Of a DNA stretch of 64,000 nt, positions 1-28,600 are shown piece after piece (the stretch's first letter is position 1; every line of letters begins with the position of its first letter). The position numbers and the translations under genes are program-made. This DNA comes from Candidatus Gastranaerophilales bacterium (GTDB lineage: Bacteria; Cyanobacteriota; Vampirovibrionia; Gastranaerophilales; Gastranaerophilaceae): assembly GCA_017560095.1 (NCBI GenBank), contig JAFYOU010000025.1, forward strand, positions 28,435-92,434. The letters run 5' to 3'. Below the pieces are notes generated by a model that did not search any database, was not told where the DNA came from, and saw only the letters and a program-made list of their open reading frames with translations.

Positions 1-942
1 AGACAATTCAGATATCGTTGCTCTGTCTTTTGCGTCAAAAACTTCCATAATTTTTGCAGAAACCTCAGGTAAATCCAAATTTGTTTGAACAGAAGTGTTA
101 GCGTATTCTATTTTATATTCAAGCCTGATTTTTTGCTTTTGCAAAGTTTTTAAGAAAAACATTAACCAAGGCTCATAATTTGGTTCTATGTTTAAAGTTG
201 TTTGAGTTTGTCTTAACGCTCGATAATAGCCTTCTTTATTATCTTCAATAATTGATTCAGTTGAACTATAAGGAACATAAACATATCCTGATTTTAATAA
301 TAGAAGATTTGTTAATGCTCTTGATAGCCTACCATTCCCATCTTGGAAAGGGTGAATTGCAAGAAAATTAACAACAAAAACGCCAATAATAATTAGTGGA
401 TGATAATACTTATCAGCTAAATTCTTATTTGTCCAATCAATTAATTCTTGCATTTTTAAAGGAGTTTCAAAAGGTGTTGCTGTTTCAAAAACAACACCTA
501 GTTCCTTGCCTTCACTATCATATGCTGCAACCGCATTAGAAATTTTCTTGTATTCACCTTTATGCTTTTCATCTTTTGATGAATATTCCAACAAAATCTT
601 GTGTAATTGTTTTATATAATTTTCAGATAGTGGAATAACTTCCCAATCTTCAAAAATAGTATCAGCAAGTTTTGCATAACCTGCAACTTCTTCTTCATCT
701 CTGTTTGCAAAAGATTGTTTTTTTATGCGAGATAAAAGTTCTTCTACTTGTTTATCTGTTAGTTTGTTTCCTTCTATACGGTTTGAAGATCCTACACTTT
801 CAATTGTCGCAACTTTTTTTAAAGCTCTTAATTTTTCTGGAGCCATTTTGCCTAATAATTTCCAAGAGCCTTTAAATTCATCAATCTCTGAAATTATTGA
901 CAACATTTGATTAGTGATTTTTATATCTAGATTTTCTAACAT
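1..942 (-). CDS. Fic/DOC family protein (AMPylation-type fold); 3' end runs off the left window edge
   Basis: Not in the ORF track because it is open at the window edge. My reverse-strand translation from the ATG at 942..940 reads MLENLDIKITNQMLSIISEIDEFKGSWKLL... and contains the Fic signature HPFQDGNGRLSR (approx nt 322-356). Confidence 0.85.
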   Translation of the reverse strand, partial: MLENLDIKITNQMLSIISEIDEFKGSWKLLGKMAPEKLRALKKVATIESVGSSNRIEGNKLTDKQVEELLSRIKKQSFANRDEEEVAGYAKLADTIFEDWEVIPLSENYIKQLHKILLEYSSKDEKHKGEYKKISNAVAAYDSEGKELGVVFETATPFETPLKMQELIDWTNKNLADKYYHPLIIIGVFVVNFLAIHPFQDGNGRLSRALTNLLLLKSGYVYVPYSSTESIIEDNKEGYYRALRQTQTTLNIEPNYEPWLMFFLKTLQKQKIRLEYKIEYANTSVQTNLDLPEVSAKIMEVFDAKDRATISELS

Positions 943-948
943 AATAAT

Positions 949-975
949 ACCTAATTAGACCTAATATGACCTAAT
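949..975. promoter_or_regulatory. Three ACCTAAT direct repeats at exact 10-bp phasing, just upstream of the fic start codon (candidate operator)
   Basis: ACCTAAT occurs at 949-955, 959-965 and 969-975, read directly from the sequence. Function is inferred only from position. Confidence 0.3.
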
Positions 976-1051
976 AATACATTATTTTTATCTAATTGTC
1001 AATTTAATTATAAACCCTTAAATATTAAGACCATCAATTTGTTAAATGACT

Positions 1052-1400
1052 AACTACTCCCAAGCAGACTCGAACTATGAGGCAAATTGCAGAAACTCTT
1101 GTGGTATCTGTATTATAAGAGGACTCTTTTAATTTGGCGAAAGAGAATATACCTCAAATAACAGAGAAATTCTCTCAAAAATGAAATTTAGAGAATTTTA
1201 CCAAGCGGCTAAAGCCCACGTGGTGCGCGATTTTTGCATAAAAAAAGAGATCTGCAATAGATCTCTTTATTATTATGGTGGAGATTAGAAGATCCAAATT
1301 CTAGGTCAGATTTGTTCCAGTTTACCATCCTATGTCAAGTATTGCTTACATTTCGACTATTATCAAGTCGTTTCTTGTTTATTGAATCATTTCGACACAA
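1052..1400. repeat. Array repeat R1 (~349 bp): left arm with conserved hairpins, bidirectional terminator hairpin, degenerate tRNA-Ala 3' end, ~100-bp right arm
   Basis: Aligns by eye along its whole length with 2248-2595, 3668-4015 and 5343-5691. The pseudo tRNA 3' end TGGTGGAGATTAGAAGATCC starts at 1276. The terminator stem is AGAGATCT/AGATCTCT. Confidence 0.9.
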
Positions 1401-1491
1401 TTAACCTAATAGAAAATTAAGTGTATAATAATGATATTCTTTTACTAAAGTTTTAATCTGCAAATTATATTTAGATAAGGAGAGAATCTTA

Positions 1492-2217
1492 ATGAATGAA
1501 TTTAAAAATAAGGTTGCAATAGTTACTGGTGGTGCATCAGGTATTGGTAAAGCAATTGCAGAAATGCTTAATGCTAATGGAGCTAAGGTTGTTATTATTG
1601 ATCGTGATGACAATACTACTAACTGTGATTATTTTTATAAAGGAGATTTAACTCAAAAAGAAGTTCTTGAAGATTTTACTTCCAAAGTTAAAGAAAAATA
1701 TACTAATGTAGATTTTATTATAAATAATGCAGGATTAACTAAAGGTGGACTTTTAACTTGTGATTATGAAGATTTTTTGTATGTTCAAAAAACAAGTCTT
1801 GCTGCACCATTTATGCTAACTAAATTATTAATGAATAATTTTAATCCAAATGCATCAATAGTTAATATTTCATCAACTAGAGCTTTTCAATCTCAACCAG
1901 ATTGGGAGAGCTATGCAGCAGCTAAAGGAGGAATTGTTGCATTGACTCATTCAATGGCTGTAACATTAAAAGGAAAGGCTCGAGTTAATTGTATTTCTCC
2001 AGGTTGGATTGATACATTAAACTCAGATTTTTGTACAGAAGATTTATTACAACATCCTACAAATAAAGTTGGAACTCCAAATGATATAGCGAACTTAGTA
2101 TTATTTTTATGTTCTGATAAAGCTCAATTTATTACAGGTGAAAATATTACTGTTGATGGAGGTATGAGTAAGTTGATGATTTATCACAATGACTACGGAT
2201 GGAATTATAACTCATAA
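1492..2217 (+). CDS. Short-chain dehydrogenase/reductase (SDR) family oxidoreductase
   Basis: ORF track 241 aa. It has the TGGASGIGKAIA cofactor motif, the NNAG motif and a YAAAK catalytic motif. A GGAG RBS lies upstream. Confidence 0.9.
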   Translation: MNEFKNKVAIVTGGASGIGKAIAEMLNANGAKVVIIDRDDNTTNCDYFYKGDLTQKEVLEDFTSKVKEKYTNVDFIINNAGLTKGGLLTCDYEDFLYVQKTSLAAPFMLTKLLMNNFNPNASIVNISSTRAFQSQPDWESYAAAKGGIVALTHSMAVTLKGKARVNCISPGWIDTLNSDFCTEDLLQHPTNKVGTPNDIANLVLFLCSDKAQFITGENITVDGGMSKLMIYHNDYGWNYNS

Positions 2218-2247
2218 TTTTTTGGGCATCACTTTGCATGTTCCTAT

Positions 2248-2595
2248 TACTACTCCAAAGCAGACTCGAACTAGAGGCCAAATTGCAGAAACTCTTGTGG
2301 TATCTGTATTATAAGAGGACTCTTTTGAATATGGGAAAGAGAATTCGTCTCAAATAACATAGAATTTCTCTAAAAAATGAGATTTGGAGAATCTCACCAA
2401 ACGGCTAAAGCCCACACAGTGCGGGATTTTTGCATTAAAAAAGAGACCTTAATCGGTCTCTTATTTTTAATGGTGGAGATTAGGAGATCCAAACTTGAGG
2501 TCAGATTTGTTCCAGTTTACCATCCTATGTCAAGTATTGCTTACATTTCCACTATTATCAAGTCGTTTCTTGTTTATTGAATCATTTCGACACAA
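2248..2595. repeat. Array repeat R2 (~348 bp)
   Basis: Same architecture as R1. The pseudo tRNA 3' end starts at 2471. The terminator stem variant AGAGACC/GGTCTCT is at 2442-2461. Confidence 0.9.
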
Positions 2596-2699
2596 CTATT
2601 TTAACCTTAAGATCACTATGTCCATTTTTGACGTATTGGTGTTTTAGAATAAAATAGTAAATCGCATAGACATATAATTATCCATTAAGTTGTTTAAAA

Positions 2700-3095
2700 T
2701 ATATGTTTGGAGTGATTTACAAACAGCTTTGGTACTGTAAATATCGCGACAGAGCCAAAATGGGCGACAGGGGTTTGATGCGAGTCCCCTTATCAAAGCT
2801 TCATAATTCTAATAAGGGACCAGCTTATTAGTGAGAATGTAGTTCTGACAGGAGTACAACTACAGATTATGAAAATACCAATTAGTATCTGCTCTCGGTT
2901 TGGGTACCGCTCGTTTAGGACGTAAGGCAGGGGCTTGTTGGGAAACAAAAGAGTTCAAGAATAGAATAGGAGCCTTTTCTTGAAGTAATGTCTGAACCGG
3001 GTACATAAGACGAACAGACGCTCTTCCTCAACTACACCGACCTTAGGGAGCTTTTGCCCTAAGTGTCGTGGTGGCTGGGGTAATGTAAGGATTTA
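2700..3095 (+). ncRNA. Candidate structured RNA or long structured 5' leader; class not recognised
   Basis: No ORF on either strand. The region is visibly more G+C-rich than its flanks. Several clean local hairpins are present: AGGGG..CCCCT, GTAGTT..AACTAC, TTCAAGAA..TTCTTGAA and CTTAGGG..CCCTAAG. Strand is assumed from the cassette orientation. Confidence 0.3.
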
Positions 3096-3098
3096 ACA

Positions 3099-3632
3099 AT
3101 GAAACTAGAAAACTTTCCAGAAATAAAATGGATAATAAGTAAACAAGATTCAATGAATAGGTGTATGTCTGTTTATAGACAAGACCATCCTTATTTTAAA
3201 TGTTTTGATTTTCCAAGATATTTTTATTTCAAAATTTATAATGATAGATTAGTAATACATTGGGCCGTAATACGTAAAGAAGAAAATTGGTCAGTATATT
3301 TTATAAGTATGCGTGGCCGTGCTTTCGATAAGCTAGAGTTTAAAACTAAAAAACAAGCACAAAGAGCGTTGCGTCGAAACAAATTTTATTTTTCTACAAA
3401 TAAATATTGTCCCTATAAACCAATTTCACCAATTTATATAAACCTTGGCGAAGGTAAAAAATCAGCACCTTATTCAAAAGGAAATTTATGGGATTTTGGA
3501 AAAAAAGCCCAAGACAATGTTAAAAAGATTAGCAATAAACATATCGAATATAAAAGCAACTATATAAAATTACTAATAAAACTTATACAATGGATTGTTA
3601 TTATTTTGATAATAAAAGCTATTTCAAATTAA
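3099..3632 (+). CDS. Hypothetical protein with C-terminal hydrophobic helix
   Basis: ORF track 177 aa. No motif recognised. The C-terminal LLIKLIQWIVIILIIKAI looks like a TM anchor. Confidence 0.55.
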   Translation: MKLENFPEIKWIISKQDSMNRCMSVYRQDHPYFKCFDFPRYFYFKIYNDRLVIHWAVIRKEENWSVYFISMRGRAFDKLEFKTKKQAQRALRRNKFYFSTNKYCPYKPISPIYINLGEGKKSAPYSKGNLWDFGKKAQDNVKKISNKHIEYKSNYIKLLIKLIQWIVIILIIKAISN

Positions 3633-3667
3633 GTTTAAAATTAGGACCACCAATTTGTTTGATTGAT

Positions 3668-4015
3668 TACTACTCCAAAGCAGACTCAAACTAGAGGCCA
3701 AAGTATCGAAACACTTATGGTCTCTGAATTACAAAAGGACTCTTTTAATTTGGCGAAAGAGAATTCGCCCCAAATAACAAAGAAATTCTCTGAAATTTGA
3801 GTTTTAGAGATTTTCACAAAATCGCCAAAGCCCGCACAGTGCGGGATTTTTGCATTAAAAAAGAGACCTTAATCGGTCTCTTATTTAAAATGGTGGAGAT
3901 CAGGAGATCCAAACTCGAGGTCAGATTTGTTCCAGTTTACCATCCTATGTCAAGTATTGCTTACATTTCCACTATTATCAAGTCATTTTTTGTTTATTGA
4001 ATCATTTCGACACAA
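3668..4015. repeat. Array repeat R3 (~348 bp)
   Basis: Same architecture as R1. The pseudo tRNA 3' end starts at 3891. The terminator stem is AGAGACC/GGTCTCT. Confidence 0.9.
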
Positions 4016-4103
4016 TTATTTAAAATTCAAATTTCTTACGTCCATTTTTGACATATAAGATTTTTATAATAAGAATAATAATACAATAAAGGAGTAACTT
4101 TAA

Positions 4104-5318
4104 ATGAAAGAAGTTGTTGGAAAATTTAATACTGCAAAGATTTTTACTGATAATATAGATACCTTTTCAGTATCCCAAATACAAACACTATGTGATCAAG
4201 AATTTATTAGTGATAGTAAAATCAGAATTATGCCAGATGTGCACGCCGGTACAGGTTGTACGATTGGAACAACAATGACTATTAAAGATAAAATAGTTCC
4301 AAACCTAGTCGGTGTTGACATCGGTTGTGGTATGGAAACTATTGAACTTGCTAATGATTCTGTGGATTTGGAAAAGTTCGATAAATTTATCTATGACAAT
4401 ATTCCGAGCGGCATGAATATTAGAACAACTCCACACAAATACGTAAATGAAGTTGAAATTAATAATTTGAGATGCCTTAAAATGATAAATCAGCATAGAG
4501 CAATTCACAGTGTTGGAACACTAGGTGGTGGTAATCATTTTATTGAAATTGATAAAGATTATGAAGGTAAACTTTATATCGTCATCCATTCAGGAAGTAG
4601 ATATTTAGGTAAAGAAGTTGCCGAATATTATCAGGAAGAAGCATATAACCAGTTAAACAACTGTTCTAAAAAAATGCTTGATGATGTTATTGCGGATTTA
4701 AAAGCACATGGCAGACAGTCTGAAATTCAAACTACAATTGCAGAATTAAAAAAACAAATCATAACAGATATTCCTAAAGCTCTTGCTTATGTAAGCGGTT
4801 ATCTATTCGATAATTATATTCACGATATGAAAATCGTACAAAAATATGCAGTTATGAATAGAAAAGCTATGGCTGATGAACTTATAAAAGGTCTTGATTT
4901 AAGTGTAAAAGAAGAATTTACTACTATTCACAACTACATAGATACAGATTCAATGATTCTTAGAAAAGGTGCCGTATCAGCAAAAAAAGGTGAAAAACTT
5001 TTGATTCCTATAAATATGCGTGATGGAAGTTTAATTTGTATAGGCAAAGGAAATGAAGACTGGAATTGTTCAGCCCCTCATGGCGCAGGAAGATTATTCA
5101 GTAGAAATCAGGCAAAGAAAAATTTTACTGTTGACGAATTTAAAGCATCAATGAGCGGGATTTATACAACTTCAATTAATGAAGAGACACTTGATGAATG
5201 TCCAATGGCTTATAAAACAATGGATGATATTGTTAATAATATTTCTCCAACTGCAGAAATTATAAAAATTATAAAACCTATTTATAACTTTAAAGCTGGC
5301 GAAGGATTTAAAAAATAG
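4104..5318 (+). CDS. rtcB: RNA 3'-phosphate/5'-OH ligase RtcB
   Basis: ORF track 404 aa. RtcB hallmark motifs are present: PDVHAGTGC, GGGNHFIE, HSGSR, HNY and APHGAGR. An AGGAG RBS lies upstream. Confidence 0.93.
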   Translation: MKEVVGKFNTAKIFTDNIDTFSVSQIQTLCDQEFISDSKIRIMPDVHAGTGCTIGTTMTIKDKIVPNLVGVDIGCGMETIELANDSVDLEKFDKFIYDNIPSGMNIRTTPHKYVNEVEINNLRCLKMINQHRAIHSVGTLGGGNHFIEIDKDYEGKLYIVIHSGSRYLGKEVAEYYQEEAYNQLNNCSKKMLDDVIADLKAHGRQSEIQTTIAELKKQIITDIPKALAYVSGYLFDNYIHDMKIVQKYAVMNRKAMADELIKGLDLSVKEEFTTIHNYIDTDSMILRKGAVSAKKGEKLLIPINMRDGSLICIGKGNEDWNCSAPHGAGRLFSRNQAKKNFTVDEFKASMSGIYTTSINEETLDECPMAYKTMDDIVNNISPTAEIIKIIKPIYNFKAGEGFKK

Positions 5319-5342
5319 GTACATCAGTTCGTTTCTCCCAAT

Positions 5343-5691
5343 TACTACTCCAATGCAGACTCGAACTAGAGACCAAATCGCCGAAACACATATGGTCTCT
5401 GAATTACAAAAGGACTCTTTTAATTTGGCGAAAGAGAATTCGCCACAAATAACAGAGAAATTCTCTAGAAAATGGAATTTAGAGAATTTTACTAAACGGC
5501 TAAAGCCCACACAGTGCGGGATTTTTGCATAAAAAAAGAGATCTGCAATAGATCTCTTTTTTATTATGGTGGAGATTAGGAGATTCAAACTCGAGGTCAG
5601 ATTTGTTCAAGTTTACCATCCTATGTCAAGTATTACTTACATTTCCACTATTATCAAGTCATTTTTTGTTTATTGAATCATTTTGACACAA
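5343..5691. repeat. Array repeat R4 (~349 bp)
   Basis: Same architecture as R1. The pseudo tRNA 3' end starts at 5567. The terminator stem AGAGATCT/AGATCTCT matches R1. Perfect hairpins AGAGACCA..TGGTCTCT and AGAGAATT..AATTCTCT lie in the left arm. Confidence 0.9.
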
Positions 5692-5895
5692 ATGAATATT
5701 AAGCAAAATTTTTACAAAAAATTTGTAAATTCTTTGAAATTTACTCGAGTTTTTGAGCTGAAAACATCTTGTAACAAGGAAAGTCCTGTCAATTAGCCGA
5801 ATGGCCTACGTAAAAATACGGACTTGTTGGCCATTTTGAAAATTATTATAATGTGAATATTTTTAAGATTTACACAATTAATAGGAGAAATTAGA

Positions 5896-6840
5896 ATGGC
5901 AAATTTAAGAGATTTTTTCAACAAAATATCTAATGATAATCGAATTTTTACAGCAGAAGATATTGGGGAGATGTCTAGTAGTGAATTTTCACAGAATGAA
6001 AAAGCAATTGATTATCAATTAGCACATTTAGGTGTGCCTAAAAATTCTGATATTGCTCAATCGGATGATGTTATTTATGTTAATGCCTATGTTCGAGATG
6101 ATGGAACTAAAGTAAGGGCACACTACAGATCTAAGTCAAATAAGCAAAATTTTAACAAGGCAACGAATTTTACAAATCAAAAAGTAGTTGATAAAAAAAT
6201 TTTTTCAAACACTAGAGGCACTATCGATGATTATTCTTCATCTATAGAAAATATTTCTATTGGAATAATTAACAAAAAAATACTTGATTTAGGCATAAAT
6301 ATTATTGGGAGAAAAGGTCAAGAAGATGCTATGACTTTTTGGAACATCGCATCCAGACCATTTTGGATTAATAATGAAGATTATATAAATAAAAACGGAA
6401 AAATCTATAATAATATAAAAAATTTAGGTATAGAATATGATCAATATAAGCCAAAGATTATAGAAAAAGTAAAATCTCAATTTGGAAATGTAAATGTACT
6501 TGGAATTGTTTTTCATGAAAATAGTACTGTTTCAAACGCGATTAATCAATCACAAGAATTAAATAATTTTGTTCTAAAAAATATTACTGCATTAAAATCA
6601 GGAAAAGAAATAACAGGTTCAATATCTTTTACTAATGATAAAAATTTACACAACACATTTGGTAAAGTTGATATTTTATCTGCGAAGTTGAATAGCAATA
6701 ATATTGATGTTATATTACTAGATACATATGATTTTAATCCCAATGAAAAAAATTGGATAGTACAAATGGGATATAATGCACAAAAAGTAGGTTTGCTAAA
6801 TCCATACTTTACAATTGTAAGATGTAGATATAAATTATAA
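5896..6840 (+). CDS. Hypothetical protein
   Basis: ORF track 314 aa with an AGGAG RBS upstream. No recognisable catalytic motif. Confidence 0.6.
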   Translation: MANLRDFFNKISNDNRIFTAEDIGEMSSSEFSQNEKAIDYQLAHLGVPKNSDIAQSDDVIYVNAYVRDDGTKVRAHYRSKSNKQNFNKATNFTNQKVVDKKIFSNTRGTIDDYSSSIENISIGIINKKILDLGINIIGRKGQEDAMTFWNIASRPFWINNEDYINKNGKIYNNIKNLGIEYDQYKPKIIEKVKSQFGNVNVLGIVFHENSTVSNAINQSQELNNFVLKNITALKSGKEITGSISFTNDKNLHNTFGKVDILSAKLNSNNIDVILLDTYDFNPNEKNWIVQMGYNAQKVGLLNPYFTIVRCRYKL

Positions 6841-6851
6841 AGGATATATAA

Positions 6852-7307
6852 ATGAATAGCATAGAATTTTACATTCTTTTTTGTATTTTTAATATACTAC
6901 TAATTGGATTGATTTTAGCTTGTTATTGCCTATTTGCTGTACTATTAGTTCTAGATGTGGAAGATATATGGTTTGGTGTTAATGTTTTCTGTGCTTTTAT
7001 ATTTTTAATAATATATATTACATTAAAACTATGCTTACCTAAAATAATTGTAAATTTTTCAAATAAACATAATGGTTCAATAATTAATAATTTCATAGAA
7101 TATTTGCAAAGTAAGAAAACAAATAAAACGAAAATCTTATTTTTAGCTTTTTGTTTTGATTTACCATTTATAACGCTTTCTATAATTGGATATCCTAGTT
7201 TAGTATTATTAATATATTTTCTTTTCTATGCAGGAGGAATATTTGTTTTTTATATAATGTTATACCAAGAATGTGAAAAAAATATAAATAAAGAAAGTTT
7301 TTTCTGA
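6852..7307 (+). CDS. Hypothetical multi-pass membrane protein
   Basis: ORF track 151 aa with about four hydrophobic segments. It starts 12 nt after the preceding ORF, so the two are probably co-transcribed. Confidence 0.6.
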   Translation: MNSIEFYILFCIFNILLIGLILACYCLFAVLLVLDVEDIWFGVNVFCAFIFLIIYITLKLCLPKIIVNFSNKHNGSIINNFIEYLQSKKTNKTKILFLAFCFDLPFITLSIIGYPSLVLLIYFLFYAGGIFVFYIMLYQECEKNINKESFF

Positions 7308-7337
7308 TTTAATTAAGGACATTTTTTGTTTGTTAAA

Positions 7338-7561
7338 TTACTACCCAAAAGCAGACTATAACCAAAGGCCAAAACGTCTAAACACTTATGGTCTCTGAAT
7401 TACAAAAGGACTCTTTTAATTTGGCGAAAGAGAATTTGGCAAAAAGAACGGAGAAATTCTCTAAAAATTACGATTTTGAGATTCTCATAAAACAGCTAAA
7501 GCCCACACAGTGCGGGATTTTTGCATAAAAAAAGAGACCTTAATCGGTCTCTTTTTTTTAA
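7338..7561. repeat. Array repeat R5: left arm and terminator only, abutting the genuine tRNA-Ala
   Basis: Matches the left ~224 bp of R1-R4, including the AGAGACC/GGTCTCT terminator. Where R1-R4 carry the pseudo 3' end and right arm, the intact tRNA-Ala follows here. Confidence 0.85.
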
Positions 7562-7637
7562 TGGTGGAGGTTAGGAGATTCGAACTCCTGACCCCCTGCG
7601 TGCAAAGCAGGTGCTCTACCAGCTGAGCTAAACCCCC
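7562..7637 (-). tRNA. tRNA-Ala (anticodon UGC), CCA encoded
   Basis: The reverse complement GGGGGTTTAGCTCAGCTGGTAGAGCACCTGCTTTGCACGCAGGGGGTCAGGAGTTCGAATCTCCTAACCTCCACCA folds as a 76-nt cloverleaf. It has the G3:U70 Ala identity pair and anticodon loop TTTGCAC. Confidence 0.95.
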
Positions 7638-7780
7638 ACATTTGGGTATTTTTTTGTCATTGCAACCAAAATTATTTCGGCTACATTTTTTATTTTACAT
7701 GCTAATTTTTTTTTGTAAACCCCTTTTTTAAAAATTTTTATTTATTTTCCTGTTTCACTTTTTATGCTAATATTATTCCT

Positions 7781-8560
7781 ATGGTGATGAAGTTTTTACT
7801 TATTTTTCTTGCATTATTTGTGGTTTGGATTGCTTTTGTCGAACCATACATTCTTACCACTAATTATGGGCAAATTAAAGACAAAAACCTTGCAGGGCTT
7901 CGTGTAGTCTTCGTTTCAGACTTGCACTACAAACCCTATGAAAAATTTCGCCTAATTCGTGATGTTAAAAAAATTCAAGCCCAAAATCCTGACATAGTCC
8001 TTTTTGGTGGAGATTTTGTCAATGGTCATAAAAAACACTCATCTCTTAATCCCGCTGTTATAGCCGAAGAATTGGGGAAAATTAAGTCAAAATATGGCTC
8101 TTTTGCGGTTTTAGGTAATCACGATGTCTGGCATGATGCCTACGGTATTTCAAAACTTCTTAAGAAAAACAACATCACAGTCTTGAAAAATTCAAATAAA
8201 AAAGTCGGTGATTTCACCATTGCAGGCGTTGAAGATATGCAAACCCAAAGCCCAAATGTCGAAAAAGCCCTCAATAACGTCGAAACTCCGGTTATTCTTT
8301 TAAGTCATACTCCTGATATCTTTGAACAAGTTCCAGATACTGTTAACCTTACTCTAGCGGGTCATGTTCACGGCGGTCAGGTCAAATTACCTTTTAAAGG
8401 TGCTGTTTTTGTGCCCTCTAAATTTGGAACAAAATACGCTGAAGGCTATTTTAATGACATGGGTCGCAAAATGATTGTCACAAAAGGTGTGGGCACAAGC
8501 ATTTTGCCTATCCGTTTCTTGTGTTTCCCTGAAATTGTCCTTATAGAATTCGTTGATTAA
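7781..8560 (+). CDS. Calcineurin-like metallophosphoesterase with N-terminal membrane anchor
   Basis: ORF track 259 aa. Motifs: VSDLHY, GGDFV, GNHD and GHVHGGQ. Confidence 0.85.
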   Translation: MVMKFLLIFLALFVVWIAFVEPYILTTNYGQIKDKNLAGLRVVFVSDLHYKPYEKFRLIRDVKKIQAQNPDIVLFGGDFVNGHKKHSSLNPAVIAEELGKIKSKYGSFAVLGNHDVWHDAYGISKLLKKNNITVLKNSNKKVGDFTIAGVEDMQTQSPNVEKALNNVETPVILLSHTPDIFEQVPDTVNLTLAGHVHGGQVKLPFKGAVFVPSKFGTKYAEGYFNDMGRKMIVTKGVGTSILPIRFLCFPEIVLIEFVD

Positions 8561-8883: not shown

Positions 8884-9612
8884 TTAATCCCATTCAATAT
8901 TCATAACACATAAGTCATCGCCAGTTTCAGCGTTTTTAAGCAGATGAATTGTGTGGGTTTCGTCTACAATTTCAATTTGTACCAAAACCTTATGCCCAAA
9001 CTTGATCTCCTTTTTGTAAATGATATCAACAGTTTTAAGGTGGTGGTGGGTTTTAAAATCGAAACTTAAAGGTTCTAATGCCCAAATGATGTAGTTACAG
9101 TTGTTTACGTGTTGGTTTACGTCGATGTCGTCGTATCTAATTTCAAAGACTTTTTCAATAGTAATATTTTGTGGCATTTGAATTTTTGAGAAAGTTAAAT
9201 CATTTTCACGTTTTTCAAAGTTTGGCATTTTAGGATTGTTAGCAAGTGCCTCTCCAATAAGTGAAAGTTTTCCGTTCTCCAAATTCACCAAAGCCCAACT
9301 GCTGGTTGCTCTTGCAAAAGTTTTTTCACCGTTGCAAAGTTCAAAATCACGGAATGCAAAAAGTTTTTGATAACCTCTTGGTTCTGTTTTTACAGTTAAT
9401 TCGTATTCTCCAATAGGATATTCACTAAATTCAATGTGATACTTCAACAAAAACCAAGCAAGATTTTTTTTGACTATATATGAGTAGCCAAATCCGAAAT
9501 TCTCTGCATTTTCGCTCGCCATATCTTGAAAATAGTTTAACAAAGCAGATGGCTTGAGAGCCAATTTGTAGTCCATTTCGGAATATCTAACGTTAATCTT
9601 CTTATCAAACAT
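8884..9612 (-). CDS. Acyl-ACP thioesterase
   Basis: ORF track 242 aa. It shows a double hot-dog pattern typical of the FatA/B-like acyl-ACP thioesterase family (RYSEMD..., NQHVNN). Confidence 0.75.
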   Translation of the reverse strand: MFDKKINVRYSEMDYKLALKPSALLNYFQDMASENAENFGFGYSYIVKKNLAWFLLKYHIEFSEYPIGEYELTVKTEPRGYQKLFAFRDFELCNGEKTFARATSSWALVNLENGKLSLIGEALANNPKMPNFEKRENDLTFSKIQMPQNITIEKVFEIRYDDIDVNQHVNNCNYIIWALEPLSFDFKTHHHLKTVDIIYKKEIKFGHKVLVQIEIVDETHTIHLLKNAETGDDLCVMNIEWD

Positions 9613-9635
9613 AAGTAGATTTTAGCACAAAAATT

Positions 9636-10013
9636 TTATTCAAATAATTTTTTGTAACTGTCAATGAGTTGGCACATTCCTTTTGGAATATAATCAACAT
9701 TGTATTTTTCAGCAATTCTTCGGATATCAGGTGCGGCAGAAGCGATTATAATTCTTGTGTTTGAATATTCTTTGTAAGTTTTGATTTGTTTAATGAACCA
9801 TTCGCCTGCATATAATGGCAAAAAGTCGCTTTCCATCTGCATATCAGTAAAAATTATGTCATAAGGTTCATCTATATTAAGAGTAATTTTGTCCAAACCT
9901 TCTTTTGCCCAGTTAGCAGTTTCAATAATGGTATCTTCAGGCAGAAAAGACTTGAGACATTTTACGTGATGTTTAATCCAGTTATTTGAGTCGTCAGTAA
10001 CTAAAATTTTCAT
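9636..10013 (-). CDS. Stand-alone response regulator receiver domain protein
   Basis: ORF track 125 aa. It has an N-terminal acidic pair (LVTDDS) and a phospho-acceptor-like FTDMQM. Confidence 0.7.
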   Translation of the reverse strand: MKILVTDDSNNWIKHHVKCLKSFLPEDTIIETANWAKEGLDKITLNIDEPYDIIFTDMQMESDFLPLYAGEWFIKQIKTYKEYSNTRIIIASAAPDIRRIAEKYNVDYIPKGMCQLIDSYKKLFE

Positions 10014-22667: not shown

Positions 22668-25600
22668 ATGAGTGATATTAGGCTCGGTAATTCGGGCAAA
22701 ATAAACATAAATAACTTAAAAGCTGGAATTAAAAAGGAGCAGATTCAACACGATGAGAAACTGCAGAAACTTTTTGATGCCGTTGACACGCACAAAGACG
22801 GAGTCTTGGATGATAACGAAATTGAGCAATTCAAAAAACAAATTTTAGAACAAGCTGGCAATGACAAGCTTTCAAATAGGGAAGCTAATAAATTCCTCAA
22901 AAATTTAAAAATGGAACATATTACAAAAGAGGATTTGTTTGAGTTTATTGAAACGTTGTCGCAAGAGGGCGAAAACATTACAGAGTCATTGTGTGTATCA
23001 GACAAAAAAGGCAATAAAACCTACAAAATCACCTATAAAGATAATTCAACAGAGCTTATTAACGATGATTTGAGCCGAGATGTTGTCACAAAAGGCGATA
23101 ACGGCGAAACTATCGTCAAGCATTTCAAAAAAGATGCGAATAAGCCTTCGACCATTACGGTCAAAAAGCAAGATGGTTCAACCGAAACAACCAAAATGGA
23201 TGAGGATGGCAAACCAATAGAAAAAGTTGTTGTGGATAAAGATGGCAATACTACAACGACAGTTATTGGTGAAAAAAATCTTCCTACAATGCAAAAGGTA
23301 ATTCCAAAGTCAGGAACACCTATCGAAATAATTATTATGGATGAAAAAGGTAAACCTAAATCAAAAACGGTTGAAAATGGCGCTACTATTGAGGAATATA
23401 CCTATGATGAAAAAGATAACCCTGTACTAAATACCAAATCTGAAAATAAAGGTATTCCTGCAAAAGAAAAAATAACCACATACACCTACAATGAAGATGG
23501 CACAACCATTGCCACGACAAAAGAAGCCAATAAACAAACAGAGTTAATCACTAAAGGCGGAGATTTTATTTCTGAAACCGTGACTAATGACAAGGGACAT
23601 AGATTGTCACAGACTAAAAATGTTGATGGTCAATTGTACACAAAATCTTATGACGGCAACGGCAACACTTTGGGCGTGATAGTCCAAAACGGTGAAAGCA
23701 TATCTGCACTTGCTGAAAAATTTGGTTGCAGTGTTGATGATATTATCAAAGCAAACAAAGGATTGGTACAAGGCAAGGGTAAAGACGCATATTTCTTGGT
23801 TGGTACAGAGATAAAAATTCCACGAGAAATTGATGCAGATGACAAAGTTTTTGAAGGCAGAACCTCTAGCGAAGAAGCGATAGAGGGTTATTCTGCGTAT
23901 ATGCAAACAAAAGCTGCCGAAGAAGCTCAAAAAGCGCAAGAGGCACAACAAGCTCAAGAAACACAGGAAACGCAAGAGGCACAAGAAAAAACTCAAAAAG
24001 AATTGCAAGAAAAACAACGTGAAGCAAAAGAGATTGCTGAAGGTATGTATAATGCTTGTACTGCCAAACGAATGGGCAGTATAGGACATGAAGATTTTCA
24101 AACTCCTTTGAAGAAAATAAATGAACAAAACGCAAGTGCTGTAATTTCTCAACACAATGCTGCACATCCTGAAGAGAGCCTTGTTGCTTTGATTTGCAAT
24201 GAAAAAATGTCGTCTAACGGAGATAGAAAAGAGGCACTTACTCACATAATGAACCAATTGGCAGCGGAAGCTAGAGCCAAAGGCATTCCAGAAGCTGATA
24301 TTAAAAAATATGTTAATGAATTCAATATTTCAATGAAAGCTGAATTCAAAAAAGTAGGCGCAATTTCTCCAAACAAAATGGAAGCTTGCATGAAAGCTTT
24401 GCATGGTTTAGTTTTAAGTGCAGATGTCAAGGCAGATGAAATTACTGACCAAGAGGCGATTGAAAGCTTTAATGAAACTGCAAAAGGCGAATATGAAAAT
24501 GCCGAAACTCAATATAACACAGCACGAGAAAAAGAAGGTTGGACTGCTAAAACAGGTGACACTGTTTTAGGTTGGTTTGGATGTATCACAAAAGAAGATA
24601 TGGACGGCAAATTGGCGGCATATAAGGGTGATATTGAAAAGCTTCAAAACTGCAAAACCGAAGCAGAATTTAAAAAGGCATACGAAGAAGTTTTTGGAAT
24701 ACCGTTCGATAAGAAAAAAATAGCGGCATACGAAACTGCAAAAGCCGAAATGCAGTTGGCGGCTGGTGCGAAAGCCAGTGCAGATTCAATGCAACAACTT
24801 TATAATGAAGCACGAGGATTAGATTATGAAGCTTATAAAGCAAAAGTTGCGGATGCATTCAAGGGTAATCCTTCAGAAGATGGAAAACCAACAGGGCTTA
24901 CACCAGAAGATATTGACGAAATTGTAGATGCTTTGTCTGTAGATTATATGAAAAAACATCCACATGCTGATAAAAAGGATGTTCTTCGCCACTTTGTGGA
25001 TATGCAAAAGCAAAAGCAAATGGAGATATACAATGACGTTACAAAGGGCAGAAGCATTGAACAGATGGACAAAGAGCTTGATTCAATCAGGCAGAGCGCT
25101 TTTGGAACAAAAGATATCGTAAATGATGTAATCCAATATAACCAAAACCAAGAAATGACAGGCATGGCAGTAGAAATGGCTGGAGAAATTGCGGCAACAG
25201 CTGCATTGCAAGCTATTCCTGGTTTAGGACAACTAGCGGCTGCAAAATTAGCAGTAAGCGCAGCAAAATGGGGTACAAGAGGTGCTAAATTCCTTAAGTA
25301 TGCCAAAAATGCAAGTAATATAATGACAAAAGCCTCAACTTCATTGGAAAAAGGCGCTAAAGGTTTAGAAAAAGTTAACAAGGCAATAAATTCATCAAAA
25401 GCTTCTCGTATAGCGACAAACACAGGTGCAGCGTTTGTCGGTACTACAGGTGTAGACTTGTCAAACGGTAAATCTGTAAAAGAAGCATTGCAAAAAGGTA
25501 TGCAGAATGCTGTATTTGCGGGCGCAGGTGGTTTTTCAAATGAATTTGCACCAATATTGTCAAAAACATTAGGTCTTCCAAACAAGGTGTCTAAAGAATT

Positions 25601-28600
25601 AGCAGACGAAATTGCAGAAGCAGCATTAGACTTATTAACAAGTTCAGGTGCTTCTGTTGCAATGCTAGGAGAATATACTTCAACAGATGCATTCATGGAT
25701 TTGGCGACAGGTATTATTATGAACCGACTTGGTAAAGTTGGTGTAAAAAATGCAGGTCAAAAACCTGAACAACCTCAAACTCCTGTTACTGATAAGGCAT
25801 CTTCAAATGGTTCAGCTCAACCTTCCAGTGTAAAAGTTGGAGAGGCAAAAGCTGAAAAAATTGCAGATGAAGTTGATGCAGTGGTCTCTAATCCTGAAAC
25901 TAGTGGAGAAGAATTGGCACGAGTCAGACAAGAAGTTGACGGATTACAAAATCGTGATTTACGTCGAGACGCTGAACAAAAAATTGATAATGCCGCTGAA
26001 AACTTAAGCCCTGAAGAAAAAGCTAAATATGAAGCTGCTAAAAAAGCAAATGCTGAAAAGAATATTAACCATATTTTTGAAAAACATAGTGAGTTAACTT
26101 CAGCAGATGCTCGTGTTTTGAGTGAATATATTCAAAATACTGATGATATTGAAGTTTTGAACAAATTAAGACAACAATTAGCAGACAAAGAACACTCTTA
26201 TGGCGGAATTACTGCGAATTATGACAAGTTGCGTGGTGCAATTGACAAGAAAGTTGCTGAACTACAACCAACACCAGCTAAAATAAATACAGAACAACGT
26301 GAAAATGTTGTTAATATGTTGAAAGAAAAAGCGACAACTGGCAAAGGTTTGAATGAAAATGAGTTTAAAGAATTGACTGCATACATCTCAACAATAACGA
26401 GTGATGATGATTTAAAAGAAATCAAAAATTTAATTGGCGGAAAGAAAATGACATCCGCTCAAAAGAAAGAGTTGAAAGAACTTTTAGCTACAAAAACTGA
26501 TTCAATAAAAGCTCAATCTGCGTCAGCAGAAACAAACACAGCCGCAAAAACAGAAGACTCAAAACCTGTAACAAAATCAACAGAAAAAGTAGAAGACATA
26601 AATCCTGCAAACAGTGAAATTACTGCAGGTTCATTATATGATATAAAAAATCCTGAAGAATTTGTTAACCAACTTAAGCAAGCGCTTCCAGATGCGGAGT
26701 TGGCAAAAACTTTGGATGGTTTATCTGCAGAAGATGCTGATATATTAAAAAGAGCATACAATGATATTTTCCCTAATGGTGGAGATGAATTTGCACTGAA
26801 TGATTTCAATGAACTTTTACAATCTTTGCAAAATCGAAGCAAGAAAAATAACACAAAATTAGCTGATGAACTTCAATTAATAGATAAAATCTTAAAAGCT
26901 CCTTCTGCTAAAAATGGAGAGATAATAGATTGTGTTTTAATGTCTAGAATACCGACAGAAGAAAAAGTTCTAGACAATATTGAACGTTTACTAAAACTTA
27001 AAGAAACATGTGACAATCCATTGTTGAATATCGACAATATAATTGTTATATCTGGAAAATTCAAAGATATAGATGATATTGAAGTTTTGGTGAAAAGATT
27101 TGAAGCTAAAAATCCAGATGGTTCATATAAATATAATGTCGATGAATATGACGAATTTTCTGTGGATCCAACTGCTGTGAATAAATTAAAACAAAACATG
27201 TTGGATAGTTATAAAGATAAACCTGAAATTCATAAAGGGATATCAGAGTTTTTTGAAAATGCGGATTTAGAGTCTATAAAAGACTTTAAGACATTTATAT
27301 ATAATAGTGATGAGAAAAAGTTTTTATACAACTTACGCCAAAATACACCTAAAACAATAATGTCTGATATAAAAATGGGTCTTGATTCAATATCTGACGT
27401 TGATTTTAAAAAGATGATTGATGAAATGATTGCAGAAATTGAAAATTCTGATATGTCGCAAATCACGAAAGCTAAAAAATTAAGAGAACAACGTCAATTA
27501 GTAGATTCATATAATAATTTGACTGATAATTACGCCACAATAGAAGCTGGAGAACACCAAATATGGGGTTCTTATTGGAAAGATTATTTAAATTATATTA
27601 AACAAAATGATTCTGCTTTAGAAAAACTAATTAAAGGTCAAGGCAACTCTAGAGGTGGAATAGCGGCAAAATTTGAAAATTTTGTGAAAAAACGCTACGA
27701 AGACTTGAAAGATATTTTCATTACCGATAATAAAAATCATAGAGAAATTTTAAATTCTATGGTAAAAGAGTTTGAAGAATCTCAAAGAATAGAACTTTTT
27801 GTTGATTATTGCAAAAATAATAATGATAAAGCTTGTAATAAAATATATAAAGATGTTTATTTGAATCGTAGTGATTTTACTCCTGAAATTAAACAAAAAT
27901 TATCAGATATTTCTGATAAATTTGGTGTGAAAGTATTTTTGGATAGTAATATAACTGCAGATACAGACAAATGTCTTCAATATATTGAAAAAGAACTAGC
28001 GGAATGGAAAAAAGCAAGTAATGGTAGTGCAAAAATGCCACCTGTTTTGGATTTTACAGGAGCTAAAAAAGATTATTATGACAATACGAGTGCTTATGGA
28101 CATGGTAAAACCGCTGGTTTTAGTGAAAGTGCATCTAGTGGTGCTATTTCAATGTACGGTTGCACATTAGAACAATTAGAATGGAGTTTCAGACATGAAA
28201 TGACACACTCAAATGATTTGAAGCGTTTACACAACTTCCCTGAAGGATTTTTATCTAAAGCAGGGGACACTACTATTGCGCAAGACAGCAAATTCTTTGA
28301 AGAATTAGTAGAAATAGGTGTAGACCCAAGCCATGCTCCGTATGCATATAATAATCCTGAAGAATTTATTGCAGTAGCATCAGAGGGTGATTTGAGTAAA
28401 TGTTCACCTGAATTAAGACAAACTTTACTAGATTTTGGTATGCCAGAATGGCAATTTAATATGAAATCAAAGGCAGATTTAGTCCAAGAAGTTGTTGATT
28501 TAAAAGCAAACAAAATTGCTGATGATGCAAAAGATTTCAAACTTTGTACTTCTGTTAAAGAAGCTGAAAAATTATATGACAAATTAATCTCAAAACGTTG

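Follow-up and report, generated by a model that had tools for sequence, protein, structure and literature searches.

The left end of a 64-kb window of Candidatus Gastranaerophilales DNA (family Gastranaerophilaceae; contig JAFYOU010000025.1; the window is the whole stretch analysed, 64,000 nucleotides (nt) in length) carries an array of four unrelated cargo units that are set apart by five directly repeated blocks of ~350 bp and that end at an intact tRNA-Ala(UGC) gene. The array is best explained, with a probability that we put at roughly 0.6, as a tandem accretion of recombinase-less mini-islands at tRNA-Ala, which would belong to a family targeting either this gene or the transfer-messenger RNA (tmRNA) gene and would be mobilised in trans by a CcrB-like serine recombinase. 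A cassette, as delimited from the sequence, would consist of a right arm of ~100 bp, its own promoter-like site, one or two genes, a left arm of ~220 bp ending in two terminators and a copy of the tRNA 3′ end. An earlier note on this DNA, made from the letters alone, had proposed repeated site-specific insertion at the tRNA 3′ end, and the proposal is now supported by the varying position of cassettes, by the tmRNA gene as a second target with a matched core and by the leftward continuation of the array.

A repeat search of the window returned one repeat family with five direct copies starting at 1050, 2246, 3666, 5341 and 7337, and a MAFFT alignment of the five blocks gave a mean column identity of 85% (Table 1). 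Together with the ARAGORN and Rfam matches of the tRNA, this bears out the earlier description of five same-orientation repeats ending at tRNA-Ala. No further copies are present in the other 56 kb of the window, as judged by two arm probes of 30 and 50 nt with up to 3 mismatches and by profile hidden Markov models (HMMs) of both arms, searches for which shuffled sequences gave an expectation of 0. An ordinary dispersed repeat, akin to repetitive extragenic palindromes (REPs) or miniature inverted-repeat transposable elements (MITEs) and clustered here by chance, would likewise be short, non-coding and furnished with inverted-repeat motifs. However, in more than 200 kb of related loci (designated by L numbers) the block occurs only by tRNA-Ala or tmRNA or inside such arrays, and it is absent from the phage collection and viral contigs; the scatter away from tRNA-Ala and gene boundaries that had been named as the opposing outcome was thus found neither in the window nor in the related loci. 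The pattern and HMM searches effectively refute a dispersed repeat, and we give it next to no credence.

The anatomy of the block resembles that of an attachment site with a tRNA-derived core. On the + strand a full copy (R1 to R4) reads as a left arm of ~220 bp, a GCCC..GGG hairpin with a T-run, a bidirectional terminator composed of an A-run, a hairpin and a T-run, a core, and a right arm of ~100 bp that terminates in TTCGACACAA in all four. First, the core TGGTGGAGATTAGGAGATCCAAACTC is identical at 23–24 of 26 positions to the reverse complement of the tRNA 3′ end, the latter being TGGTGGAGGTTAGGAGATTCGAACTC, so that the degenerate tRNA copy noticed earlier is indeed there; the intact tRNA-Ala and the four displaced 26-nt 3′-end copies, in direct orientation and with 2–3 mismatches each, form an Islander-type signature. 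Next, in both the sequence and the alignment R5 keeps the left arm and the terminator and then runs into the real tRNA, and the topology proposed before, B-core-P′ at the tRNA followed by P-core-P′ junctions, holds. Finally, the left arm begins ~5–10 nt after the stop codon of the preceding open reading frame (ORF). Cargo ORFs had been said to stop 25–36 nt before the repeat, and the distance to ATTACTAC does measure 22–33 nt, but similarity starts ~20 nt earlier, almost at the stop codon.

The same cassettes are found at different positions in other genomes, which constitutes indirect evidence for mobilisation of the kind known from cis-mobilisable elements (CIMEs). In L006, from another sample, the identical short-chain dehydrogenase/reductase (SDR) protein is encoded directly against tRNA-Ala, with the same leader and with a right arm upstream, and beyond the tRNA the DNA differs except for the conserved tRNA promoter region and a different gene comes next. 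The SDR cassette also abuts tRNA-Ala in L014, from a different species bin, where a response-regulator gene and a histidine kinase lie upstream; no right arm is detectable upstream of the cassette, which has the appearance of a terminal unit in decay. In L026 the slot beside the tRNA is taken by a pyruvate-kinase unit, in opposite orientation and with a full junction before it, and the same unit is distal in L012, where it is preceded by terminator, core and right arm without a left arm, a candidate terminal junction. In L015 a homologue of the 151-amino-acid (aa) protein of the window is the tRNA-proximal cargo, and L028 has other cargo in that slot. From the arrangements in L006, L014, L026, L015 and L028 it follows that at least four different cassettes occupy the tRNA-proximal position, and cassette content and order, whose invariance across relatives had been raised as an argument against insertion, differ between genomes. 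A scan of one genome per species with the left-arm pattern matched four Candidatus Gastranaerophilaceae metagenome-assembled genomes (MAGs), and a fifth match lies on a contig binned as Methanobacteriaceae; this contig carries tmRNA and SmpB, as read from ORF translations, and is therefore bacterial. A viral origin was rejected, as neither arm pattern occurs in IMG/VR and GenBank phages lack the repeat.

A second target with a correspondingly exchanged core is seen at the tmRNA gene. In L013 a full-length left arm with a terminator of the R1/R4 type is joined to TGGTGGAGACGGTGGGACTCG, which is the tmRNA 3′ end; another copy of this end follows, and the intact tmRNA gene is reached after ~170 nt. 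A shorter homologous arm of ~160 nt abuts tmRNA in L011, L025, L031, L045–49 and L050/51. Within the tmRNA arrays of L031 and L050/51 the junctions are built likewise, from left arm, terminator, core and right arm. Their core is a degenerate tmRNA 3′ end that retains the T-loop (AGTCGAA) and GTCCA but has AT-rich sequence in place of the stems. The right arms of the tmRNA type and the tRNA-Ala type are 76% identical. Both junction types preserve GGACTCTTT-N10-AAAGAGAAT with invariant stems and a variable loop, the AATTCTC motifs, the GCCC hairpin and AAAAAAGAG-stem-CTCTTTT, and in the right arm the blocks ATCCTAT, AGTATTGCT, TATCAAG and TTNGACACA. Common to both targets is TGGTGGAG (TGGAGA where CCA is not encoded), with a TCGAAC T-loop 10 nt further in; because the identity between junction and target ends right after this block, the crossover is probably placed in or just left of it.

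Several further observations concern the cores and arms at these targets. In L013 (7504–7685) ~160 nt of GC-rich sequence, in an AT-rich host, separate the 21-nt copy of the tmRNA 3′ end from the intact tmRNA and probably represent what is left of another, foreign element at this position. In L012 (2600–2680) a terminator is followed by TGGTGGGGGGGAGTTACAAAGTCGAAC..CAATGTG, which resembles a pseudo-core of the tmRNA type, and the other junction of that array is of the tRNA-Ala type. On the minus strand of L027 (3650–3700) the left arm is followed by TGGTGGCGGGGACAGTCTCTCGAGC, a core that could mimic a third tDNA. The distal 65 nt of the cassette-type left arm were considered as a decayed tmRNA fragment on account of a shared GACTCGAAC, a similarity too weak to claim.

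The large serine recombinase is encoded just outside the window. L001, a 111-kb metagenome scaffold found through the exact SDR protein, contains the same locus (window position = L001 position − 8509) and to the left of the window holds, in order, the rest of the Fic gene, a 708-aa ORF, a sixth repeat R0, two small ORFs, two DUF488 genes, a DuOB-domain gene, a recombinase with DUF2924 and a type I restriction-modification methylase. R0 (L001 5668–5772) is truncated and has only the first ~105 nt of the left arm. The suggestion that the array goes on leftward past Fic is thus borne out by R0 and then by DUF2924 and the recombinase; the statement of the earlier note that there is no recombinase in the window stands, but the end of the recombinase gene is only 5.3 kb left of the window start. 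The 526-aa protein (L001 1668–3248) has the Resolvase and Recombinase domains (PF00239 and PF07508) and an N-terminal YTRKS motif, and the start of its gene overlaps the stop of the DUF2924 gene; DUF2924 (104–131 aa) is the upstream, translationally coupled gene of the recombinase in every locus. The best NCBIfam match of the recombinase is CcrB (6e-47), with a score of 160 bits that is far below the curated equivalog cut-off of 900. Over two thirds of its length it is 45–50% identical to phage serine integrases, including that of AcaML1, a phage for which integration in the tmRNA gene, with repeats of 10 bp, has been reported (PMC3826726).

The surroundings of seven recombinase homologues (66–96% identity) were scanned for arms and tDNAs, and the recombinase gene is associated with the arm: a left arm lies 0.03–5 kb downstream of it in 7 of 9 homologue lineages, and in 4 of these tmRNA comes next, directly or after more cassettes. 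The recombinase gene is followed by one gene, an arm and tmRNA in L011 and L045–49; by one gene, a junction, more units (a Fic gene, then a unit of an 80-aa, an M23 and a 186-aa protein), an arm and tmRNA in L031; and by one gene, a junction, one more cassette, an arm and tmRNA in L050/51. In L029 it is followed by five genes, an arm, a core of the tRNA-Ala type and a right arm, in L001 by the truncated R0 and then the array of the window, and in L032–41 by one gene and a truncated arm. The core-proximal ~160 nt of the left arm are common to the cassette junctions and to the arm after the recombinase in L029, L011, L031, L045 and L050. The recombinases of the tRNA-Ala arrays (L001 and L029) have 96% identity; identity is 76–88% among those linked to tmRNA, taken together with two close relatives whose target was not seen (L032 and L042), and 66–71% between the two groups, a pattern which suggests two recombinase clades that track the two targets. 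Across the loci, no relationship is seen among the genes that separate recombinase and arm, and the small ORF beside the recombinase was rejected as a conserved directionality factor, the 95-, 128-, 151- and 227-aa proteins being unrelated. The recurring backbone around the recombinase comprises Terminase_6C, DUF5681, a ParB_N-N6_N4 methyltransferase and DUF2924, and the defence-type cargo of the backbone includes type I restriction-modification, HipA, a ZorA-like protein, SIR2, SoFic and DuOB/PDC-M45A. Just upstream of DUF2924 and the recombinase in L031, an Mrr restriction gene and a 48-aa ORF are enclosed by 62-bp inverted repeats (8379–8440 and 9603–9664) that are 90% identical, and this segment may be invertible or inserted.

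The arms would also agree with a tyrosine integrase encoded elsewhere, outside the loci examined, in which case the 350-bp block would be a classical attP with arm-type sites (AGAGA/TCTCT) and the serine recombinase a bystander. Such enzymes are typically recognised by a long attP in which arm motifs recur and by a crossover within the tDNA 3′ end (PMC4383910), and the left arm is dense in AGAGA/TCTCT, with 4–8 motifs per 225 nt against 0.4 expected, an enrichment of 10–20 fold. However, the serine recombinase consistently adjoins the arm, and no Phage_integrase domain is found on the island side in ~20 non-redundant loci, the sole match, in L050/51, being an Xer-like gene of 283 aa that is located 4.5 kb past tmRNA on the side of the chromosome; a role for a tyrosine integrase appears rather improbable.

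The left arms are mosaics. The arm after the SDR gene is R2-like over its first ~60 nt in the window, L006 and L014, and beyond that point it is R4-like in L006 (46/49, 28/29) and R3-like in L014 (46/49, 58/60); gene conversion or homologous exchange is therefore active between arms, and it could by itself shuffle cassettes. Homologous recombination as the main engine is accordingly the main rival to the insertion model, with which it is compatible. The arms would then serve as homology arms through which arrays swap, gain and lose cassettes by a RecA-type process or gene conversion, for instance once DNA has been taken up; no site-specific enzyme would act on the small units, and the serine recombinase would move only its own large island. 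The mosaicism is clear within and between genomes, the arms are 84–100% identical and of ample length for RecA, and their sharp outer boundaries in all cassettes, at the terminal right-arm motif and at the stop codon, fit exchange between fixed flanks. What such exchange leaves unexplained are the tDNA 3′-end copy in each junction, the switch of the core to a tmRNA mimic while the arms are still homologous, and the origin of the first arm pair at two different tDNAs. We consider it unlikely as the principal mechanism.

The terminator is the only part of the block with covariation. Its stem occurs in two compensatory versions, C:G versus T:A (4/10 sequences), as had been noticed before, whereas compensatory changes are lacking in the two conserved left-arm hairpins that had been described, whose pairing is partly disrupted in R1 and R2. 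The left arm as a structured RNA was dropped after RNAalifold on 10 copies detected a compensatory change in 1 of 49 pairs, located in the terminator stem, and searches against Rfam (gathering thresholds on the whole window, E ≤ 1 on 1–8000) matched only tRNAs and no family in the arms or at 2700–3100. On the minus strand every right arm (window 5593–5691 and its equivalents in R1–R3; L031 12181–12268; L050 12600–12690) has TTGATA-17-AATACT hexamers, which are kept between the tRNA-Ala-type and tmRNA-type right arms despite differences at 8 of 17 spacer positions. Transcription from this putative promoter would run through the pseudo-tRNA core as far as the bidirectional terminator and would yield an RNA of ~90 nt ending in a mimic of the tRNA 3′ half. 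The conserved hexamers and the bidirectional terminators with their covarying stem would suit a module for expression or insulation, or else a small-RNA gene, made up of this promoter, the mimic of the tRNA 3′ half and the terminator, which was duplicated locally together with genes and involves no mobile units. Such a module is very improbable in view of the cassette content and order, which vary between genomes, and of the one arm that is attached to two different tDNAs; the lack of an Rfam match and of covariation outside the terminator likewise speaks against it.

If the cassettes accrete by insertion at the tRNA, each event would restore the tRNA from the 3′-end copy of the element itself, so that the target would be regenerated, and would leave an attP-like junction of left arm, pseudo-tRNA core and right arm. 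Later arrivals would stack beside the tRNA at the recreated target, and the constant position of the recombinase island as the unit most distant from the tDNA would thereby be accounted for. The CcrB-like recombinase, assigned by association, coupled to DUF2924 and located in the distal unit of the array, would act on the cassettes in trans, presumably by way of circular intermediates. The arms could in addition function as insulators: the double terminator would face the cargo, the second hairpin would also terminate the tRNA or tmRNA, and the left arm would thereby shield the essential RNA gene from convergent transcription. Homologous recombination would homogenise and shuffle the arms.

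A number of points weigh against this model. Large serine recombinases normally need sites of only ~50 bp, recombine only attP with attB and do not use attL, and a conserved 350-bp block together with insertion beside an attL-type site is not predicted for a textbook member of the family; nonetheless, lineages whose recombinases are only 66–71% identical have ~160 nt of the left and ~100 nt of the right arm in common, and the outer arm boundaries are sharp in all cassettes. The arms may bind an accessory factor, possibly DUF2924, or may serve expression or insulation. The mosaic left arms show that recombination is not confined to the core, and the truncated arms followed by a Fic-bearing module at differing arm positions (L001, L012, L031) do not fit neatly. 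No circular form, empty site or within-population polymorphism was observed, and the contigs of the window's own strain all share one order. A search for the distal end of the recombinase island, expected as a tDNA fragment with a right arm, was negative in L031 (over 10 kb to the left), L032, L042, L045 and L051, and in L030 and L042 there is no arm within 10 kb of the recombinase gene. Finally, the correlation between recombinase clade and target is built on few loci.

The closest described system is the ssrA island family of Dehalococcoides (ssrA-GIs), whose integrase DsiB is a CcrB homologue of 540 aa encoded beside the att site (McMurdie et al. 2011, PMC3146451). These islands have 20-bp tmRNA repeats with extra flanking conservation and occur in tandem arrays, and those without an integration module have been read as cis-mobilisable (PMC3146451). 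Shared with them are integration in the tmRNA 3′ end, direct repeats that mark tandem islands with an extra conserved flank, and units without an integration module; a large serine recombinase (~530–540 aa there) beside the att site is a probable further likeness. The ParB-domain protein and DNA-modification gene of the ssrA-GI backbone have their likeness here in ParB_N-N6_N4 methyltransferase, DUF5681 and Terminase_6C. In contrast, the units described here are 1.2–2.0 kb in size with one or two genes instead of multi-kb islands, the conserved junction is ~350 bp instead of ~85 bp, a true tRNA gene is targeted besides tmRNA, the partner protein is DUF2924 instead of the second small serine recombinase DsiA, and the host phylum is Melainabacteria. 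The earlier note had called the array neither a classical integron nor a normal genomic island; the integron part of this holds, but the tandem ssrA arrays of Dehalococcoides show that its novelty was overstated (PMC3146451).

Similar principles are evident in other known systems. The staphylococcal cassette chromosome (SCC) composites, including SCCmec, resemble the arrays in that CcrB is the best-scoring family of the recombinase, in insertion at the 3′ end of a conserved gene (rlmH/orfX) that regenerates the target and in recombinase-less pseudo-SCC elements in tandem (summarised in PMC3146451). The window and the tmRNA arrays L031 and L050/51 have these traits of CcrB-family islands: insertion at the 3′ end of a conserved single-copy gene, a regenerated target and tandem arrays with recombinase-less units. 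Unlike in SCC, the target is an RNA gene and cassette size is lower by an order of magnitude, and the match scores 160 bits against a CcrB cut-off of 900; a CcrA/CcrB pair is lacking, as is any second serine recombinase partner such as CcrA or DsiA, and DUF2924 takes that place in every locus. The CIMEs of Streptococcus thermophilus and their accretion with ICESt1/ICESt3 are likewise comparable (concept cited in PMC3146451): such units lie in tandem with an autonomous element, have att sites akin to those of that element and lack genes for recombination or transfer, and the cassettes are indeed flanked by att sites related to those of the co-resident recombinase element and have no recombination or transfer genes of their own. 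The CIME system employs a tyrosine integrase at the fda locus and usually comprises one or two units, in contrast to the run of at least five units here.

The tycheposons of Prochlorococcus are anchored at tRNA or tmRNA genes as successive cargo-bearing elements with tandem junctions, and 27 of 937 have a large serine recombinase (Hackl et al., bioRxiv 10.1101/2020.12.28.424599). The successive integration at such genes is similar and the host lineage (Cyanobacteria sensu lato) is related, whereas the hallmark deep-branching tyrosine recombinase and replication module of tycheposons is present in none of the loci examined, and neither a 350-bp modular junction nor single-gene recombinase-less cassettes have been described for them. 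Integrons share mostly single-gene, recombinase-less cassettes that end in a site-like repeat starting at the stop codon, and one recombinase gene at one end of the array. They differ from the present arrays, which have direct 350-bp repeats with a tDNA-derived core, terminators and a putative promoter for each cassette (integron cassettes being promoterless and expressed from a common Pc), and an entry point for new units that would lie at the end far from the recombinase gene. An IntI-type tyrosine recombinase (PF00589), which in integrons is encoded beside attI at the head of the array, is missing from the genes called in L001 and in the other array loci, where the only recombinase is of the Resolvase and Recombinase type. 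There is no attI, and the repeats, ~350-bp direct copies with 85% identity and a tRNA-derived core, are no attC sites, which are imperfect palindromes of about 60–140 bp, although no dedicated attC model was run. Tandem islands of the Islander type are likewise marked by an intact tDNA with displaced direct 3′ fragments; in these an integrase per island is required and is of the tyrosine family (PMC4383910), whereas the cassettes here have none and the associated recombinase is of the serine family.

What appears to be new is the miniaturisation to single genes, the modular junction of 350 bp, the targeting of a true tRNA gene by a family of serine recombinases and the paired tRNA-Ala and tmRNA variants with matching cores, and no paper describing such arrays in Melainabacteria was found in the literature. 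If the proposed mechanism is true, the Melainabacteria, uncultured gut relatives of cyanobacteria, gain a defined route to single genes, with cargo that in the loci seen spans RNA repair, Fic toxins, metabolism and defence, and a true tRNA gene joins the short list of RNA-gene targets of serine integrases. A closely related pair of serine recombinases (66–71% identical) with two well-defined targets and matching attP cores would be useful for studying and engineering target specificity, and if the arms prove necessary for recombination, this would be an unusual requirement in the enzyme family. A more far-reaching model, which we hold tentatively and with the odds against it, is an integron-like gene-capture platform run by a large serine recombinase. 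In it each single-gene cassette would have a modular block of ~350 bp with an exchangeable target-mimic core (tRNA-Ala, tmRNA and possibly a third type in L027), the arms would bind an accessory factor such as DUF2924 and thereby allow reuse of an attL-type site, and each junction might also produce, from the conserved promoter of the right arm, a short RNA mimicking the tRNA 3′ half.

Table 1 Repeats, cargo units and target gene of the tRNA-Ala(UGC) array in window coordinates.
Feature	Position	Strand	Details
Fic/SoFic-like gene, 5′ 314 codons (351 aa full length in L001)	1–942	−	Pfam Fic 6e-18; PADLOC SoFic 2.7e-47 on full protein; last gene of the unit before R1
R1 repeat	1026–1400	+	left arm 1026–1243; bidirectional terminator 1244–1268; pseudo-tRNA core 1276–1301; right arm 1302–1400
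Cargo 1: SDR oxidoreductase	1401–2217	+	promoter-like site 1401–1429 (promoter scan); ORF 1492–2217; Pfam adh_short_C2 1.5e-51
R2 repeat	2222–2595	+	left arm 2222–2440; terminator 2441–2462; pseudo-core 2471–2496; right arm 2497–2595
Cargo 2: 177-aa ORF without family	2596–3632	+	promoter-like site 2628–2655; ORF 3099–3632; 500-nt leader
R3 repeat	3640–4015	+	left arm 3640–3860; GCCC hairpin and T-run 3831–3855; terminator 3861–3882; pseudo-core 3891–3916; right arm 3917–4015
Cargo 3: RtcB RNA ligase	4016–5318	+	promoter-like site 4048–4076; ORF 4104–5318; Pfam RtcB 4e-64
R4 repeat	5320–5691	+	left arm 5320–5530; terminator 5531–5562; pseudo-core 5567–5592; right arm 5593–5691
Cargo 4: 314-aa ORF and 151-aa membrane ORF	5692–7307	+	leader with promoter-like site 5869–5897; ORFs 5896–6840 and 6852–7307
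R5 repeat (attL-type)	7310–7561	+	left arm 7310–7526; terminator 7527–7559; abuts tRNA
Intact tRNA-Ala(UGC)	7562–7637	−	ARAGORN; Rfam tRNA 70.9 bits; 3′ ~26 nt is the sequence mimicked in R1–R4

The cargo of the window is as first described, with an SDR, a 177-aa protein, RtcB and the 314-aa and 151-aa pair in the cassettes and Fic at the left edge, and is confirmed by the ORFs and Pfam, with two or three of the proteins belonging to no family. Each cassette leader consists of unique sequence and has a sigma-70-like site that agrees with the consensus at 10 of 12 positions, a consensus match only, and each left arm provides two terminators. A structured RNA had also been suspected at 2700–3100 in the leader of the 177-aa ORF, a claim that is not supported: nothing in Rfam matches the region, and its folding z-score is only −1.4. 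The GC content at 2700–3098 is 0.35–0.40, against ~0.30 in the surroundings. No recombination or transfer genes were recognised in the cargo of the four window cassettes by Pfam, NCBIfam or PADLOC, and among all cargo PADLOC matched only Fic (SoFic) and the DuOB protein (PDC-M45A), so that the four cassettes are not recognisable defence genes. Look-ups of the exact RtcB and 177-aa proteins returned only contigs of the same strain, with the same order. An RtcB gene is also found in the recombinase-island backbone of L042 (2466–3587), where it adjoins the terminase gene, and RtcB may be a recurrent cargo of this element family.

The Fic gene and its promoter region recur in L012 and L031. The Fic/SoFic-bearing module (L001 5773–9535, reaching window position 1026; L012 5381–7866; L031 12269–13424) has a conserved non-coding start of ~470 nt, GGGGTTTATTTAGGACATTTGAATTG..., in addition to the conserved promoter region. 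The point at which it breaks the arms varies, lying after position ~105 of the left arm in L001 and ~135 in L012, and within the right arm, with an 88-bp duplication, in L031. The module looks like an independently inserting or recombining unit. The leaders at window 5700–5895 and L031 13541–13770 have the blocks AAAATTTTTACAA..TTTTGTAAATT, ACGTAAAAATACGGACT and TTTTTAAGATTTACAC in common, without an Rfam match, and the first ORFs that follow are of 314 aa in the window versus 80 aa in L031; judged from these shared blocks, the leaders may contain a conserved 5′ regulatory element.

Several assemblies of the window's strain (contig ends of L002, L004, L018 and L022) break inside R4, and short metagenome contigs of the strain hold a single cassette between partial arms. 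Such repeats fragment short-read assemblies, and arrays of this kind are therefore probably under-represented in MAGs. Outside the array, a single ORF of 4208 aa extends over window positions 22668–35294 on the + strand.

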